A program made the translations under genes and the position numbers. Below are positions 22,732-30,073 of a stretch of 32,000 bases of DNA, in pieces. The stretch is from Candidatus Heimdallarchaeota archaeon. GTDB lineage: Archaea > Asgardarchaeota > Heimdallarchaeia > Heimdallarchaeales > Kariarchaeaceae. The stretch lies in NCBI GenBank assembly GCA_030149205.1, contig JASBSB010000003.1, forward strand, positions 120,001-152,000. Direction: 5' to 3'. How positions within the stretch are numbered: position 1 is the stretch's first letter; each line of letters begins with the position of its first letter. Under the pieces are notes generated by a model. The model worked only from the letters and a program-made list of their open reading frames with translations, was not told the DNA's origin and searched no databases.

Positions 22732-23463
22732 TCAGGTAAAATTATAATGTTGTTTTTGCCAAGCTGAATGGAATGTCCCAAAGAGCATGAAATAGTAAAT
22801 GTAGAGGGTAAATATCAAACCCAGTGTTGGAAACCAGGAATCTGGTGAATATGTCAACAGAAGCATTAGAACAACACCCAGTACAAAGTGAAACTTATCA
22901 AACAGATTATCAATCTTAGACATTGAAGTAAACGTTAGTGTCGACATCATTAGCAGAGAAATAGTGATAGTTGAAATTGCAATCAGAAAATAGGAGTACC
23001 CAGGGATGAGGTTAAGTGTAAATATGAAAATTGCGGATACAGGAGAAGGCATTCCTGAAAATTGTTTACCCTTACTTTGCATTACAAATCTTGATAACCG
23101 AAATGAAGCCGTTAAAACATACAATCCAGCTGTGATTACACCTATTATTGGGTTAGGTTGTGATAGAATTATGAAAATCGCGGGATAAATTCCAAAAGTC
23201 ATCAAGTCTGCATAGGTATCCATATCAGCCCCAATTTTGTACTTATGTTTGGATTTTCTGGCTAATTTTCCATCAATTGCATCAAAGGATGCACCTAGAA
23301 CTACCAGTCTGGTTAGCCAGATTACTGAATACGTTTCATTAAATATCAGAATTATAGCCCCCACAAATCCAAGTAGAAAGTTCATTGAAGTTGAAAAATA
23401 TGCTAGGACTAACCAACCGTCAACTGTTTTATTAAATATATCAAACTCTTTCTCTAAAATCAT
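22732..23463 (-). CDS. pssA: CDP-alcohol phosphatidyltransferase; phosphatidylserine/archaetidylserine synthase
   Basis: DAIDGKLARK...GADMDTYADLMTFG motif, ASFRLSRF, FSGMPSP; 4-bp overlap with psd. Confidence 0.88.
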   Translation of the reverse strand: MILEKEFDIFNKTVDGWLVLAYFSTSMNFLLGFVGAIILIFNETYSVIWLTRLVVLGASFDAIDGKLARKSKHKYKIGADMDTYADLMTFGIYPAIFIILSQPNPIIGVITAGLYVLTASFRLSRFVMQSKGKQFSGMPSPVSAIFIFTLNLIPGYSYFLIAISTITISLLMMSTLTFTSMSKIDNLFDKFHFVLGVVLMLLLTYSPDSWFPTLGLIFTLYIYYFMLFGTFHSAWQKQHYNFT

Positions 23464-24131
23464 TCACTGACCTCAGCAACAACTGTCAAACCTGCATTAA
23501 CCTTATCTCCGACCTTTATTGCAGGATTTATTTTAATCTTATCAGATTGGATGTATAAGTTTGTCTGGCTTCCGAACCTGATGATCCCCATTTTATCCCC
23601 TTGAAGTACTTTTTCTCCTTTCTTCACCCAAGACTCAATTCTCCTTGCAAACGCACCTGTAAGCTGTAGTACATGATAAACGTTTTCCTTTCCTTTTACA
23701 GAAATTAATTGTTGTTCATTTTTTTCTTCCACGTTACCTAAGAATACATTACTATGTTTACCCGGTTTTTGAATAATAGAAATTACTTCCCCTTCAGCTG
23801 GAGCTCGATTTATATGTACATTAAAGGCATTCATTCGTATCGCAATTTTAAGATCATACTGTTTTGGGGCTAGAGATTTAGGAGATGGGTGATTAACTGT
23901 CTCAACTTCAATTACAGTTCCATCTGCTGGAGCATAGAACTTTTTAGGGTTAATAATAATATCTCTTTTTGGGTCTCTAAAAAACCAAATCATGAAAATA
24001 CCAAATCCAACCGCACAAGCTACCACAATCTCTAATATGAGCCTAATATAACCTGAAATGGGGAGAAATAGCACCACAGGAGTAAGTAGAAAGGGAACAA
24101 TTATTCGCAAGGAACGTGGGGCTACTTTCAC
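23460..24131 (-). CDS. psd: Phosphatidylserine/archaetidylserine decarboxylase proenzyme (short type)
   Basis: FFRDPKR, APADGTV, FNVHINRAP, NEQ, GAFARRI and the FGSQT self-cleavage motif. Confidence 0.92.
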   Translation of the reverse strand: MKVAPRSLRIIVPFLLTPVVLFLPISGYIRLILEIVVACAVGFGIFMIWFFRDPKRDIIINPKKFYAPADGTVIEVETVNHPSPKSLAPKQYDLKIAIRMNAFNVHINRAPAEGEVISIIQKPGKHSNVFLGNVEEKNEQQLISVKGKENVYHVLQLTGAFARRIESWVKKGEKVLQGDKMGIIRFGSQTNLYIQSDKIKINPAIKVGDKVNAGLTVVAEVSE

Positions 24132-24367: not shown

Positions 24368-25411
24368 ATGTCTGTCGGAATTGAAGGGTATGGAGTATAC
24401 ATCCCGTATTTTAGGATAACAGTAAAAGAAATTGCGAGAATGTGGAATGATGACCACAAAACCATCTCAAAGGGAATTAATGTTATTGAAAAAGCAGTTC
24501 CTGATATGGATGAAGACACTGCAACTATCAGTGTAAATGCAGCAAGAAATGCATTGAACCATTCAGGCATTGACCCAAAGAATCTCGAAGCTATTTATGT
24601 AGGCAGTGAATCCCACCCTTATGCAGTAAAACCCACAGCTGTTACAGTGGCTGAGGCGATTGGGGCGACTCCTTATATGACAGCGGCAGATTTAGAATTT
24701 GCCTGTAAAGCAGGTACAGCTGGAATGCAGATGGTCTTTGGTTTAGTAAAAGCTAATGAAATAAAATATGGGTTAGCTATTGGAACGGACTGTGCTCAAG
24801 GTAGACCTGGAGATGCACTAGAGTATACTGCAGGAGCTGGTGGTGCAGCTTTCATAATTGGGAATGAAGCACCTATTGCAACATTAGAGGGAATGGCATC
24901 ATTCACAACAGATACCCCAGATTTTTGGAGAAGAGAAGGAGCAAGGTATCCCTCACATGCAGGCAGGTTTACCGGAGAACCCTCATATTTCCGACACACA
25001 ATATCAGCAACTGAGAGATTGTTAAACAAGCTCAATTTGAATGTAGAAGATTTTGACAGAATTTCATTTCATCAACCAAATGGGAGGTTCCCGTTATCAG
25101 CAGCAAAAATTCTAAACATTCCAAGAGAAAAAGTTGAAGACAGCCTTTGTGTCGTAAAAGTTGGCAACACCTATAGTGCGGCATCAATGGTAGGGTTCGC
25201 GAGACAATTGGATCTTGCTAAACCTGGAGAGAGGATTCTTTTGGTAAGTTATGGATCTGGAGCAGGCAGTGACGCATTTTCCTTTGTTGTTACTGACGAG
25301 ATTGAAAACAAAAGAGATAGAGCGGTTTTAGTTGATCAATACATTTCAAGAAGGAAAGAACTGGATTATGCGATGTATGCTAAACACCGTGGAAAATTTG
25401 TAATGGAGTGA
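24368..25411 (+). CDS. hmgB: Hydroxymethylglutaryl-CoA synthase, archaeal type
   Basis: DEDTATISV, GSESHPYAVKP, EFACKAG (catalytic Cys), FHQPNG, GNTYSA and VSYGSGAGSD motifs. Confidence 0.95.
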   Translation: MSVGIEGYGVYIPYFRITVKEIARMWNDDHKTISKGINVIEKAVPDMDEDTATISVNAARNALNHSGIDPKNLEAIYVGSESHPYAVKPTAVTVAEAIGATPYMTAADLEFACKAGTAGMQMVFGLVKANEIKYGLAIGTDCAQGRPGDALEYTAGAGGAAFIIGNEAPIATLEGMASFTTDTPDFWRREGARYPSHAGRFTGEPSYFRHTISATERLLNKLNLNVEDFDRISFHQPNGRFPLSAAKILNIPREKVEDSLCVVKVGNTYSAASMVGFARQLDLAKPGERILLVSYGSGAGSDAFSFVVTDEIENKRDRAVLVDQYISRRKELDYAMYAKHRGKFVME

Positions 25412-26589
25412 ATCAAATGAAGCAAAGACAGAAAGTGGCAATTATTGGAACAGGAATGACAGCATTTGGGGACCTCTATGAATACGAAATAACAGATATT
25501 TCTAATCTGGCAATTTTTGAAGCATTAAGGTCGTCAAAAGTATCGAGGAAATTGATAGAATCCCTGTATGTCGGAAATATGGGGTCGAATGTTTTTGAAA
25601 ATCAAGAAAATCTGGGAAATTTAATTTCTACATACTCAGGGATCAAAAGTCCAAGTTTTAAAATTCAGGCAGCTGAGGCATCAGGAGCTGTTGCACTAAG
25701 AACTGCATATAAAAATATTTTATCAGAATCTAAGGACATTGTGATGGTTCTTGGGGTTGAGAAAATGACTGAAACCACAAAACAACCAGAACTACAGCAT
25801 GCCTTGGCAACTGGACTGGATACTATGTGGGAAACCAAAATGGGTGCAACCATGGGTGCATTGTTTGCAATCATGGCAAAGTCACATATGAAAAAATATG
25901 GTACAACACGTGAACAGATCGCACAAGTTGTGGTAAAGAACCACAACAATGGGGCAAAAAACCCAAAAGCACAATTTCACAACAAGTTAACCATAGAGAA
26001 AGTTATGAATTCTAAACCTGTGGCTACCCCTCTAAATCTTTTTGACGCTTGTGCTATGAGTGATGGAGCTGCCTCGGTGATCCTAGCAGCAGAAGATGTG
26101 GCATATTCTTATGATAGTGATCCAATTTTCATAATTGACTCAAAACAAGGATTTGCTCCTATAGCTTTACACCAAAGAGATTCATTAACTGAATTTTCGG
26201 GTACAAAATTCGCCGCTGAAAAACTATACAAAGATCATAGCATCTCGAACAAGGACATCTCGTTTGCTGAGGTTCATGATATATTTAGCATTTCAGAGAT
26301 TATTGCAATTGAGTCTTTGGGTTTGGTTCCTGTAGGAGAAGGAGGTAAAGCCACCGAAGAAGGGGTCACATCACTTGATGGAGAAATTCCAATTAATACA
26401 AGTGGAGGCCTAAAAGCTCGTGGAGCCCCATTAGGAGCTACGGGAATAGCTCAAGCGATTGAAGTTTATGAACAATTTAAGGGGTCTGCTGAAAAAAGAC
26501 AAGTTAAAGACATAAATTATGCGATGTCTCATTCTATGGGTGGTTCAGGGGGAACATCAGTAGTAACTTTGTATGGAAGAGGTAATTAA
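25408..26589 (+). CDS. Thiolase-fold (acetoacetyl-CoA thiolase-like) protein lacking canonical catalytic residues
   Basis: Thiolase fold motifs are present (GTGMTAFG, GVEKMT, KNHNNG, SDGAASV, AEVHD, NTSGGLKA), but ACASG reads AEASG, HDCF reads HDIF and GHP reads GAP. Confidence 0.88.
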   Translation: MNQMKQRQKVAIIGTGMTAFGDLYEYEITDISNLAIFEALRSSKVSRKLIESLYVGNMGSNVFENQENLGNLISTYSGIKSPSFKIQAAEASGAVALRTAYKNILSESKDIVMVLGVEKMTETTKQPELQHALATGLDTMWETKMGATMGALFAIMAKSHMKKYGTTREQIAQVVVKNHNNGAKNPKAQFHNKLTIEKVMNSKPVATPLNLFDACAMSDGAASVILAAEDVAYSYDSDPIFIIDSKQGFAPIALHQRDSLTEFSGTKFAAEKLYKDHSISNKDISFAEVHDIFSISEIIAIESLGLVPVGEGGKATEEGVTSLDGEIPINTSGGLKARGAPLGATGIAQAIEVYEQFKGSAEKRQVKDINYAMSHSMGGSGGTSVVTLYGRGN

Positions 26590-26590
26590 T

Positions 26591-26992
26591 ATGGGTGTAG
26601 CACAATCTTGGAGAACTCAATCCTCTCGCTATAGGTTAGCGGGAAGTAAATGTAATGAATGTAAAAACTATTATTTTCCAGTAACAGTTGTCTGTTCTAA
26701 CTGTGAGAGTGATAATCTGGAAGTAATTAACTTCAAAGGAACTGGAAAGTTGGTCGAATGGACAAGAGTTGATGAAGGCGCATCTGGTTTTGACCATGTG
26801 GTGCCTTATTATTTTGCTATCATACAACTAGATGAAGGAGTTAGGCTTTCTGCTCAATTGGTATCTGTGATGGATGAATCAAAAATAACAGATGGGATGC
26901 CAGTAAGGATGACATTTAGAAAACTTATGGAATCAACCAGAGAAGGAATAATTGAATATGGATTCAAGGCTGAACCTGTAAATCCTATCTAA
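26591..26992 (+). CDS. DUF35-family Zn-ribbon/OB-fold protein (thiolase/HMGCS scaffold subunit)
   Basis: CNECKNYYFP..VCSNC, GKLVEWT, PYYFAIIQLDEG, GMPVRMTFRK, IEYGFK; likely start is ATG 26591. Confidence 0.9.
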   Translation: MGVAQSWRTQSSRYRLAGSKCNECKNYYFPVTVVCSNCESDNLEVINFKGTGKLVEWTRVDEGASGFDHVVPYYFAIIQLDEGVRLSAQLVSVMDESKITDGMPVRMTFRKLMESTREGIIEYGFKAEPVNPI

Positions 26993-27125: not shown

Positions 27126-28220
27126 TCAGTGGGATTTTAAATTAAGAACACCATATCCACTTTTCAGATGCTCAACCTGCAGGTACCTCTCATAAACTTC
27201 AAAGCAATCACAATGGATTTTAGAAATGTGATTCATATTTTGCGTTCCAGAAAATTTCTTTAGGTTTTCTCGGAACAGACTATCACATTTCCCACAGTTC
27301 TGAGGTCCTCTTTCCTTCCCTGCAGCGACTGGATCTGTAATCACTATTACATCCTCACCGACCATCCTCTTAATTTTCTTCGTTACTTCTAACACTGTCC
27401 ATAACCAAGGGGGTCTATATGAACCAGATTGAAACAATTCCTCCATTAAGGTACCTTTACCAATATAACAGGGATTAATTGAGATCCCAGTTACACCTAA
27501 GTCATACATATTCTTGGCTGTTAACAGGGCATCCTTGTATGCTTGGATCTCAGATACAAAAATCGGTTTTAGTAATACATATCCCTTAACCTTTATATCA
27601 TAGCTTTGCAATAAGTTTACAGCTCTCCTAAATTGTTTAAAGCTGTGACCCTTATTGTTTGCTCTTTCATTTATCTCATCGTTGGTTGTTTCCTGTCCAA
27701 TAGCTACAATGAGTTTTTGAGGATCCACAACATCGAGTGTAGATTTAATATGTTTCTTTATGACATACTCACACCTTGTTTCAATGACAATCTCATCGAC
27801 AATTGGTACAAACAACCTTAATAGTTCCTGTTTTGTTTCTGTAGGTAATTCCCAAGGGTCAAGAAAACTACCTGATGTGTAAAATTTAACCGCTCTTAGT
27901 TCGGGGTCTTCTTTTTGTTTTCGTTGAAATATCTCTATTGCATGAGATGGTATCCTTTTGATCATCTCTTCTGTAGGATTATAGGGGTTGTCAGTAGGCA
28001 GCGTACAGAATGAACACCCCCCATGTTTGGCTCTTGCATATTTGCACGCCCTGGTAGGCAAAACCATTGCTAAAGAAGAACCTTGTTTTCCATTACCAAA
28101 ATAATGCTGATCCTTCCAATTAATAATCCTCTCATGTTCTTTTCTGGTTTGATCACTCAGAACTCTTAGGGTTCCAATTTTTTGTGTAATTAGTTTAGAT
28201 TTAGTAAAATCAGCTCTCAT
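27126..28220 (-). CDS. raSEA: Archaeosine biosynthesis radical SAM protein RaSEA
   Basis: LPTRACKYARAKHGGCSFC cluster motif, KFYTSGSFLD, IETRCEY, GQET, LLKP, YRPPWLW, GPQNCGKC; overlaps arcS by 4 bp. Confidence 0.9.
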   Translation of the reverse strand: MRADFTKSKLITQKIGTLRVLSDQTRKEHERIINWKDQHYFGNGKQGSSLAMVLPTRACKYARAKHGGCSFCTLPTDNPYNPTEEMIKRIPSHAIEIFQRKQKEDPELRAVKFYTSGSFLDPWELPTETKQELLRLFVPIVDEIVIETRCEYVIKKHIKSTLDVVDPQKLIVAIGQETTNDEINERANNKGHSFKQFRRAVNLLQSYDIKVKGYVLLKPIFVSEIQAYKDALLTAKNMYDLGVTGISINPCYIGKGTLMEELFQSGSYRPPWLWTVLEVTKKIKRMVGEDVIVITDPVAAGKERGPQNCGKCDSLFRENLKKFSGTQNMNHISKIHCDCFEVYERYLQVEHLKSGYGVLNLKSH

Positions 28221-30073
28221 GCAATCACCTCCTCTGGTATGCTCTTGAATTTTGAGTGAACTTTTGCCACTGCACCATTCATTACCCGATTCATTGAATA
28301 ACCGCTTATCAAAGCCTTTCCGATTCCTAAAGGTTTCTCCCTATTTTTTGAATAAATTATAACCTCATCTCCTGGGTTAATTTCCTCTGATGCCTTTGTT
28401 ACACCAACGGAAAACAATGTGCTTCCTTTCAACTCATCACCATCTAGTTCGACCCATGAGATTGAATTTTTATTTGACAACATAAAACAATTAGGAAATA
28501 GTTTAATCCTACCCTCTGAATCATTCCATGAAAGAATTTGACTTTTTCGTTGATAAACTGTAATCGTATAGGGTAATCTCCCTCTAAACATTATGTTTTC
28601 AAGATCTACCTGAAATTCTGACCCATGATTCCATTGTAATAGTGCAATCATTTTTCTAATCCATTTCTGATTCTTCGTTGACTCAAAATTTTGTGAAGAG
28701 TCAGCGCAAACCTTCAATTTATTCAATAATACACTTCTAGCATCTGAGCCAAGTGGAGAATCATCAATCCAACTGACATCCAAGTTAATCTCCTTCTGTA
28801 TTTGCGAGATCATCTTTTGGTAACCTTTCGAAGTATGAGCCAAAATTTTCACATCTTTTGGTACTTTTTTTAACAGATTAACAGCGAACTTTGATGTTAC
28901 ATTGACTTCTAACTCACTCCAATCACCTGAAACTGGTATGTCATAAGAAGATACAGGATATATCGATTCCAATTCTGAGGGAACGAGTCCTAATGGTGAT
29001 GTCAATGACCAAATGCTTATTATGTCTTTCTTTTTTCTGAAAGCCTTGTTTATTAGGCTTTGATATGTCTGGTGGGTTTTAGACAAGTGATATGGCTTTT
29101 TTGATGAACAGGGAACCAGAAGGATGTATTTAATACCCTCTGGGAAGTTGTACCTTTCCAATGTTCTCTTCTGGTATAGTTGGACCGATGGATGAAACAA
29201 TGATTCATCTCCAATAAAATACAGCGGATTTTTCTTGTCTACTGCAAATTTTGATAGATTCAGGGAAGAAAAATCAAATTTTTTGATGAGGGTTGCAACG
29301 GAAGGGTTTGAATGCATATCACGATAAACTCTTTCCCAAAGGTCTCTAACTTTTAAAGTTGATTCAATTAATCTAAAGTCTAAATCTACAAAACTTTGAT
29401 TGATTTTAATGAGAACCTCTGTTTTAAGATCACTCTGCTTAACCATGAAGTCGTCAAATGATAAACCTTGAAATGCTGAAAATGCAGAAACAGAATCATC
29501 TAAAATATCTACACCTAGAGCAACAAGGAGACTCTGAAGACCAACTGATACACCGCCAGGCAAATACAGAGCAATATTGGGGGAAATTAAATTTCTCAAA
29601 TTCATTATTTTCTCAAGAAGAGGTAAGATTGAGTAACTGTTCAAATGACTTGTTCTAAGCGCAAAAATAGATGGATTAAATTTGAGCATCTCTCTTAATA
29701 TGCTTTCAGGAAGAGTGAACGGGTCAAAAATAAAACCAAAGGGAATATTATAATCAATTTTCTCGAGTCTGTCAAGCATTAAATTATATTCAAATTCCAG
29801 AGATTCTTGAAATTCTGGTGCTGGAGCTAATACAGGCGAAATGATTGACCAATGGGGGATTTCATTTAATGGATTAATTTCATTAATATCTAAAGAAACA
29901 ATTTCATTCTCAGCTAAGTATATTTGTGATAAAGAGAGGTCGTCAAGCCTAATCCCATCATTTGTTACTTTGAAAAGCCAAGGTGTTGGTTTTATAGAAC
30001 TGCCTCTAATAGAAAGCTTTCGAACATTACCGTCTTCTTTCTCAATTTGAAAAACCGTCAATAATTCTACCAC
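28217..30073 (-). CDS. arcS: Archaeosine synthase subunit alpha (ArcS): TGT-like, DUF5591-like and PUA regions
   Basis: LVALGVDILD, LLVPCSSKKPYHLSKTH, TSPLGLVPSELE..YP...YDIPVSGDW, and a C-terminal PUA domain (LFSVGV...INPGDEV...GIGKA). Confidence 0.88.
   Translation of the reverse strand: MVELLTVFQIEKEDGNVRKLSIRGSSIKPTPWLFKVTNDGIRLDDLSLSQIYLAENEIVSLDINEINPLNEIPHWSIISPVLAPAPEFQESLEFEYNLMLDRLEKIDYNIPFGFIFDPFTLPESILREMLKFNPSIFALRTSHLNSYSILPLLEKIMNLRNLISPNIALYLPGGVSVGLQSLLVALGVDILDDSVSAFSAFQGLSFDDFMVKQSDLKTEVLIKINQSFVDLDFRLIESTLKVRDLWERVYRDMHSNPSVATLIKKFDFSSLNLSKFAVDKKNPLYFIGDESLFHPSVQLYQKRTLERYNFPEGIKYILLVPCSSKKPYHLSKTHQTYQSLINKAFRKKKDIISIWSLTSPLGLVPSELESIYPVSSYDIPVSGDWSELEVNVTSKFAVNLLKKVPKDVKILAHTSKGYQKMISQIQKEINLDVSWIDDSPLGSDARSVLLNKLKVCADSSQNFESTKNQKWIRKMIALLQWNHGSEFQVDLENIMFRGRLPYTITVYQRKSQILSWNDSEGRIKLFPNCFMLSNKNSISWVELDGDELKGSTLFSVGVTKASEEINPGDEVIIYSKNREKPLGIGKALISGYSMNRVMNGAVAKVHSKFKSIPEEVIA
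28225..28234 (-). promoter_or_regulatory. Shine-Dalgarno site for raSEA
   Basis: GAGGAGGTGA 4 nt upstream of the ATG at 28220, inside the arcS 3' end. Confidence 0.6.

Follow-up and report, generated by a model that had tools for sequence, protein, structure and literature searches.

A thiolase-like protein without the catalytic cysteine in the HMG-CoA synthase operon of a Heimdallarchaeal order, and its recurrence in other archaea

The accepted rationale of the archaeal complex of thiolase, 3-hydroxy-3-methylglutaryl-coenzyme A (HMG-CoA) synthase (HMGCS) and DUF35 protein is that channelling of acetoacetyl-CoA into HMGCS pulls the unfavourable thiolase condensation. The stretch of DNA investigated here, 32,000 nucleotides of a Candidatus Heimdallarchaeota archaeon (contig JASBSB010000003.1, positions 120,001 to 152,000; hereafter the window), carries genes for all three proteins as a closely packed trio on the + strand, and the thiolase-like gene does not encode the nucleophilic cysteine. 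Is this an error of sequencing, or a gene in decay? Or, has a thiolase body been kept in the operon after its chemistry became dispensable? We find that the Cys-less thiolase of the HMGCS operon is a real, conserved and recurrent feature, the known complex in a new form, and that it is probably a non-catalytic partner of HMGCS. The features on which the argument rests, in window coordinates, are these:

24368..25411, + strand: HMG-CoA synthase, archaeal type (HMGCS), 347 aa, with the catalytic tetrad Glu81/Cys113/His235/Asn267 intact
25408..26589, + strand: thiolase-fold orthologue of the HMGCS-associated acetoacetyl-CoA thiolase, without the nucleophile (Pfam Thiolase_N and Thiolase_C_1)
25675..25677, + strand: nucleophile (CxS) codon of the thiolase-like gene, GAG for Glu90, placed by HMMER alignment
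26275..26283, + strand: HDxF region of the thiolase-like gene, His290-Asp291-Ile292, where Ile292 (ATA, 26281-26283) replaces Cys
26425..26427, + strand: GHx histidine codon of the thiolase-like gene, GCC for Ala340, placed by HMMER alignment
26573..26992, + strand: DUF35 scaffold protein with zinc ribbon and OB fold (Pfam zf-ChsH2 and OB_ChsH2_C)

Aligned with HMMER to the M. thermolithotrophicus thiolase 6ESQ_A (262 bits), the thiolase-like protein reads AAEASG against aaCasg, VHDIF against vhdCf and RGAPLGATG against aGHalgatg. Both the nucleophile Cys of CxS and the His of GHx are replaced, by Glu90 and Ala340, and His290-Asp291 of HDxF are present. The original prediction had named these two replacements and that of the HDCF Cys by Ile292, each needing more than one base change. 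Alignment and codon check agree with it on all three, the codons GAG, ATA and GCC each being two to three base changes from TGY or CAY. What does not stand is the value of Ile292 as a catalytic marker. At the x position of HDxF, most Asgard thiolases that are linked to HMGCS and still have the nucleophile carry Ser, and the P. furiosus thiolase 7YVY carries Ala; since this position varies in Cys-bearing thiolases, Ile292 alone says little and the weight falls on Glu90 and Ala340. With Glu for the acyl-accepting Cys and Ala for the GHx His, no acetyl-enzyme intermediate would form, and acetoacetyl-CoA would be neither made nor cleaved by the thiolase mechanism.

In the Asgard families f10, f11 and f16 (L146-L166, L169, L172 and others) the HMGCS-linked thiolases that keep the nucleophile are mostly C-S-H at the three positions, given here and below in the order CxS, HDxF, GHx, and they evolve at 1.3-1.5x the rate of their HMGCS. 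This state may stand midway in the course of relaxation, or it may be a sign that the HDxF Cys is dispensable within the complex.

Could the substitutions be artefacts? In a 75x contig from the probable source sample the thiolase-like gene is identical. Contigs of a strain 95-99% identical (X2), from a hydrothermal-vent metagenome of a different study, cover all three codons and have 12 differences, all of which fall elsewhere in the gene; at the three positions no Cys or His codon was seen. Congeners have Gly or Asp at position 90, and Ile and Ala at 292 and 340 as in the window. Sequencing error, which had been called unlikely, is therefore excluded by the independent contigs with the same codons and by congeners that also do not have the Cys. 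An assembly artefact or a decaying pseudogene can be put aside as next to impossible in view of the X2 codons, 29 intact orthologues, a ratio of nonsynonymous to synonymous substitution rates (dN/dS) of ~0.1 and a confidently predicted full-length fold.

The three proteins belong to the families of the known complex. HMGCS passes the TIGR00748 equivalog model (535 bits vs a cut-off of 353), matches 6ESQ_I at 433 bits with the Glu, Cys, His and Asn motifs all aligned, and is single copy in the window's genome (G000; one match). That this neighbour keeps its Glu, Cys and His had been claimed before and is borne out, with Asn267 in addition. The DUF35 protein matches 6ESQ_E at 92 bits, and its four zinc Cys are invariant in the alignment of relatives; its gene starts either with a 17-nt overlap with the thiolase stop or at ATG 26591, 2 nt past that stop. 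The thiolase-like open reading frame runs for 393 aa from a GTG, with 4 nt of overlap between this start and the HMGCS stop; counted from the ATG at 25417, in the same frame, it has the 390 aa of the database form. Its product has PF00108 and PF22691 matches and the five layers of a thiolase fold, in an N and a C domain; the AlphaFold model, with a predicted local distance difference test score (pLDDT) of 90, superposes on 6ET9_C with a template modelling (TM) score of 0.94 and a root-mean-square deviation of 1.5 A. It clears only the cut-off of NF004720 (440 bits vs 420), a broad model for 'thiolase domain-containing' proteins, and not that of NF053570 (AcCoTHIOL_METTL; 410.5 vs 600), the equivalog for archaeal acetyl-CoA acetyltransferase.

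How far does the loss extend? The nearest database relatives (55-73% identity; Heimdallarchaeota or Kariarchaeaceae where named) are all without the triad, with G/D/A at 90, I/V/M at 292 and A/Y at 340. Among 40 relatives of the same order HMGCS was found in 34, and at every one of the 29 loci where the adjacent thiolase was readable the Cys is absent, replaced by G, D, E, N or T. In the window's family (f1) positions 90-292-340 are G/D/E - I/V - A/Y/H, and Glu90 is private to the window's genome, a species-specific state. The second family of the order has E-S-Y and the third N/T - S/A - D. Position 340 is Ala throughout the window's genus and Y, H or D elsewhere in the order. The E/I/A combination is thus not fixed in the clade, a possibility raised with the original prediction, and it is the loss of the Cys that is order-wide.

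The loss is not confined to this order. We searched contigs for HMGCS-thiolase loci (at least 80 loci, a sample rather than a census) and placed 157 thiolases in a maximum-likelihood tree. In it the 31 sequences of the order (31/31) form one clade with a Shimodaira-Hasegawa-like approximate likelihood ratio (SH-aLRT) support of 95, and a separate clade holds 21 Cys-less HMGCS-linked thiolases of Thermoplasmatota, all in the same three-gene operon. The members of the latter come from Methanomassiliicoccus, Methanomassiliicoccales, Methanomethylophilaceae and metagenome-assembled genomes of Thermoplasmata, with states G-N-D, G-N-Q, G-S-D and others. Further losses are present in other Asgard families (E-S-H, D-S-H, G-A-H), and C-C-H or C-S-H is kept in methanogens, Micrarchaeota, Hadesarchaea and several Asgard families. 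A minimum of 7 changes between Cys and no Cys is needed in the tree, 4 of them forced by well-supported branches; the Cys has been lost separately several times, at least 4-7 in this tree. The order HMGCS-thiolase-DUF35 is found in 29 relatives of the order and at dozens of the other archaeal loci examined.

A complete single-contig genome of the order (G015, contig C1) has two pairs of HMGCS and Cys-less thiolase ~4 kb apart, at 1296100-1297703 and 1300285-1301888 (L210, L214). Families f5 (L224-L227, same class) and f13 (L222-L223, same phylum) have no archaeal-type HMGCS at E<=1e-40. The only HMGCS homologue of f5 is 34% identical and lies in open frames of ~560 aa, and f13 has a PF01154 match in frames of ~550 aa; these may be fused HMGCS or HMGCS of a different type.

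The Cys-less genes are still under purifying selection. For unsaturated pairs of the sister family, dN/dS is 0.07-0.145 for the thiolase and 0.06-0.16 for HMGCS; these closer pairs were used as synonymous sites are saturated within the window's own genus. Relative to HMGCS, the thiolase has a rate of evolution of 1.70 in the order, 1.16 in the Cys-less clade of Thermoplasmatota and 1.03 in lineages with a canonical thiolase. Judged by these substitution patterns the gene is still functional, under a constraint that has loosened without coming near to disappearing. The canonical HMGCS-linked thiolases have 142 columns with conservation of at least 90%, and both large Cys-less clades keep this level at 64 of them, among which are His290-Asp291, Asn330-Lys336, Glu118-Lys119 and Asn178-His179; conservation has slackened at many other columns, those of the CxS Cys, of the GHx His and of the Cys-Ser-Pro motif (214-216) included. 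As position 90 varies among G, D, E, N and T, it looks like an unconstrained former catalytic site. The Glu-Cys-His-Asn tetrad of HMGCS is intact in 29/29 relatives of the order and in 20/20 partners in Thermoplasmatota.

What, then, does the thiolase-like protein do? We consider it reasonably probable that it is a non-catalytic partner of HMGCS and that acetoacetyl-CoA is made by other enzymes. Complex formation in archaea creates a CoA site common to thiolase and HMGCS, archaeal HMGCS being 50-100 residues shorter than the bacterial and eukaryotic enzymes (PMC11522927), and DUF35 bridges thiolase and HMGCS (PMC11522927, PMC12960953). Operon conservation and purifying selection suggest that the thiolase-like protein physically associates with HMGCS and DUF35. 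In such a complex the thiolase-like protein and DUF35 would keep the short HMGCS in place, and the former would contribute the thiolase's half of the CoA-binding site that it shares with HMGCS. If the short HMGCS depends on both partners for assembly and CoA binding, this would explain why the thiolase body outlived the need for its chemistry. The acetoacetyl-CoA, produced elsewhere, would come in from solution as free substrate, its candidate sources being four Cys-Cys-His thiolase/DUF35 pairs that stand alone, or 3-hydroxybutyryl-CoA by oxidation. A structure prediction for HMGCS, DUF35 and the thiolase-like protein together, each with its own alignment, speaks neither for nor against association, since a control in which HMGCS was exchanged scored only slightly lower; the trio is also similar to a solved complex.

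The scaffold or CoA-binding pseudoenzyme put forward in the original prediction is the best fit to the variable position 90, the purifying selection and the conserved operon with its HMGCS tetrad, and binding and sharing of the CoA site are to be read as probable parts of it. The supply of acetoacetyl-CoA from elsewhere, also proposed there, fits the gene content of the genome, by a route that we infer. New chemistry, the option placed beside these two, gained no positive support.

Which genes could supply acetoacetyl-CoA? An inventory of the kind called for in the original prediction shows six more genes of the thiolase family in the window's genome, which is 93.5% complete: four are canonical C-C-H and two are degenerate and in tandem. 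Each of the four canonical genes is followed by its own DUF35 gene, and one adjoins an enoyl-CoA hydratase; there are also four homologues of 3-hydroxyacyl-CoA dehydrogenase (3HCDH), so that possible suppliers of both kinds are at hand. The degenerate tandem pair is followed by two DUF35 genes (contig C8, ~110.6-114.8 kb; L006:332-2709 and downstream) and reads VGGGT/YDPFN/VGNPI and TITGD/DDTYA/MGNGH at CxS/HDxF/GHx, the YDxF recalling the Ltp2 and Sal aldolases and TbSLP. The same degenerate set occurs in other Asgard genomes (L197, L216, L219) and in one Thermoplasmata genome (L134).

Elsewhere, 15 of the 16 individually examined genomes with a Cys-less HMGCS-linked thiolase (a count that leaves aside the scan of family f2 described below) also have a Cys-bearing thiolase at another locus. 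Nine other Asgard genomes have a C-C-H thiolase elsewhere, G012 being the exception with none. In four Methanomassiliicoccales-type genomes the sole other thiolase is a classical CGS/NEAF/GHP enzyme, and a fifth Thermoplasmatota genome (G044) has this enzyme and further SCP2-type thiolases. Conversely, in five genomes the HMGCS-linked thiolase is canonical, and it is the only thiolase there. Because relatives are not independent, this complementary pattern counts as ~5-6 comparisons; its direction agrees with a transfer of the catalysis to another enzyme.

Several observations weigh against a purely structural subunit. The first comes from the sister family f2 (e.g. L206, L231; G012, G032), where 27 of 31 genomes have no other PF00108 match of thiolase size. 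The remaining PF00108 matches in f2 genomes are ketosynthase domains in megasynthase frames (1400-3500 aa, many genomes), a canonical thiolase query found nothing in f2 genomes besides the Cys-less gene, and two genomes of genus g7 in this family have no second gene like beta-ketoacyl-ACP synthase III (KAS III). Since most f2 genomes have no other thiolase, supply by a paralogous thiolase cannot be the rule for the whole order, and the subunit may be other than inert. One 3-hydroxyacyl-CoA dehydrogenase is present in each of the five sister-family genomes tested, which makes 3-hydroxybutyryl-CoA oxidation a possible thiolase-free source of acetoacetyl-CoA. The window's own genome is unaffected by the f2 gap. 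The second observation is that His290-Asp291, Asn330-Lys336 and other pocket-type motifs are still conserved, which could indicate ligand binding or residual chemistry instead of pure structure. In the archaeal complex, H284A in HDxF abolishes HMG-CoA formation (PMC12960953). The third is Cys215, the sole Cys of the window protein, which adjoins the canonical Cys214 position and is present in 6 of 8 family-f1 sequences, a candidate family-specific relocated thiol.

Cys215 invites the reading that the protein is still a thiolase whose nucleophile has moved. That it is the only Cys of the protein and shared by most f1 orthologues speaks for this, but no Cys column is conserved across the order's Cys-less clade in the alignment, the activating GHx His is gone as well, and the score lies under the NF053570 equivalog cut-off. 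We therefore regard a relocated nucleophile as very improbable.

Has the old pocket instead acquired a Cys-independent chemistry, so that the protein remains catalytic in HMG-CoA formation or in a side reaction? For example, His290-Asp291 could enolise or decarboxylate an acyl-CoA, or lyase, hydrolase or transferase activity could be present. In favour of this reading, independent Cys-less clades conserve both the HDxF His-Asp and the segment NxSGGLK, nucleophile-less enzymes of thiolase fold exist (the Ltp2/Sal aldolases and the decarboxylase TbSLP; PMC12329534), and the f2 gap would be understandable. Yet the former catalytic positions are unfixed, with G/D/E/N/T at 90 and A/Y/H/D at 340; the Tyr-Asp motif and second catalytic residue of the aldolases and TbSLP are absent (His290 is kept, 292 is Ile and 340 is Ala); and no new polar residue has arisen convergently in both large Cys-less clades, their common shifts being V114, F212, T316, R338 and T380 only. 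Such a neo-functionalised enzyme seems to us unlikely.

The conserved pocket may also be read as that of a ligand-sensing regulatory subunit, which would bind CoA thioesters and tune the activity or assembly of HMGCS to the acyl-CoA supply. Pocket-type motifs kept without the catalytic residues would suit this, as would the recurrence of the loss in heterotrophic lineages with several acyl-CoA pathways. Sequence alone, however, does not separate sensing from a plain structural role, and we rate this as distinctly unlikely.

A broader and speculative proposal, which we hold with low confidence, is that mevalonate entry in this order runs without any thiolase nucleophile. As most sister-family genomes have no other thiolase, either isoprenoid lipid synthesis would be fed obligately by C4 acyl-CoA catabolism, from 3-hydroxybutyryl-CoA to acetoacetyl-CoA, or HMGCS and the Cys-less subunit would do both condensations by an undescribed mechanism, in which the second acetyl-CoA would be offered by the retained His-Asp pocket. 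That the operon as a whole was repurposed was considered too and rejected, the HMGCS being canonical and the sole copy in the genome.

If the thiolase-like protein is a non-catalytic partner of HMGCS, the consequences reach beyond this locus. A whole Heimdall order, Methanomassiliicoccales-type Thermoplasmatota and several Asgard families keep the genes of the complex with a disarmed thiolase, so their first membrane-lipid step would be supplied and regulated differently. A disarmed thiolase contradicts the channelling rationale, and the complex must have another value, probably the structural need of the truncated archaeal HMGCS. The Cys-less genes are routinely annotated as acetyl-CoA acetyltransferase, and this will mislead metabolic reconstructions of Asgard archaea. 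We found no paper that describes Cys-less thiolase subunits in archaeal mevalonate operons, in a literature search whose coverage is incomplete and leaves most subscription journals outside. The question is testable with recombinant proteins and standard biochemistry.

Around the HMGCS operon, the - strand has, directly upstream and divergent from it, the genes of a CDP-alcohol phosphatidyltransferase (22732-23463) and of a phosphatidylserine decarboxylase (23460-24131), so that lipid head-group and isoprenoid-entry genes are neighbours. Downstream on the - strand, a gene for a radical S-adenosylmethionine (SAM) protein (27126-28220) adjoins one for a protein with DUF5591 and PUA domains (28217-30073). 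On contig C7 of the same genome at ~183750 (L143), 32 kb past the window, a ketosynthase-like match lies within a 3309-aa open frame, a megasynthase.

How does the operon compare with known systems in which a thiolase-fold protein has no nucleophile, or one subunit of the complex is disarmed? S. tokodaii ST0096 (PDB 4YZO), an archaeal SCP2-type thiolase homologue (228 bits, TM 0.85-0.96), is in the HMMER alignment also without the Cys, with Thr at CxS and Met at the x of HDxF; unlike the window protein it keeps the GHx His. No functional paper on ST0096 was found in the literature search. The chain-length factor (KS-beta) of type II polyketide synthases is likewise a thiolase-superfamily protein without the active-site Cys and an obligate partner of a catalytic subunit. 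It differs in belonging to another branch of the superfamily, in forming a heterodimer with its own paralogue, and in having a conserved Gln at the former Cys position, which is variable in the window's group.

The Ltp2-ChsH2(DUF35) and Sal-Shy(DUF35) aldolases and TbSLP (PDB 6OK1, 9MYR, 5AB6) share the thiolase fold, the DUF35 partner and the absence of a nucleophilic Cys (Gly in Sal). Their catalysis relies on a Tyr-Asp-x-Phe/Tyr motif and a second Tyr or Cys (PMC12329534), whereas the window protein has His-Asp, Ile and Ala and is 18-24% identical. The window protein was accordingly not taken for an Ltp2/Sal-type aldolase: it retains His290, and the other two positions are Ile292 and Ala340.

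Closest to the operon is the thiolase/HMGCS/DUF35 complex of M. thermolithotrophicus, with the same three genes in the same order and the match scores and model superposition given above. Its thiolase has Cys/Cys/His and makes acetoacetyl-CoA that is channelled to HMGCS (Vogeli et al. 2018, as cited in PMC11522927 and PMC12960953). With the nucleophile and the GHx His gone from the window protein, channelling from acetyl-CoA cannot work as in that complex.

The bacterial complexes of HMG-CoA synthase (HMGS), acetoacetyl-CoA thiolase (ACAT) and DUF35, PhlABC (5M3K), MucABC/SmaATase (9VBO) and P. fluorescens PfACAT/HMGS-DUF35 (PMC12960953), have the same tripartite architecture and also retain one disarmed subunit. 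There the E-C-H-N tetrad has gone from the HMGS-like unit, and Cys and chemistry remain with the ACAT-like unit. A Friedel-Crafts acyltransferase subunit of the PhlC/MucB type was rejected for the window protein, where the pattern is the opposite: the Cys is lost, the HD is kept and the tetrad of the partner is intact. The likeness to PhlABC-type complexes in mirror image that had been proposed for this operon holds, a dead HMGS beside a live thiolase (PMC12960953) being matched here by the reverse. Unlike the bacterial complexes, the window operon holds the sole HMGCS of its genome and so belongs to primary lipid metabolism.

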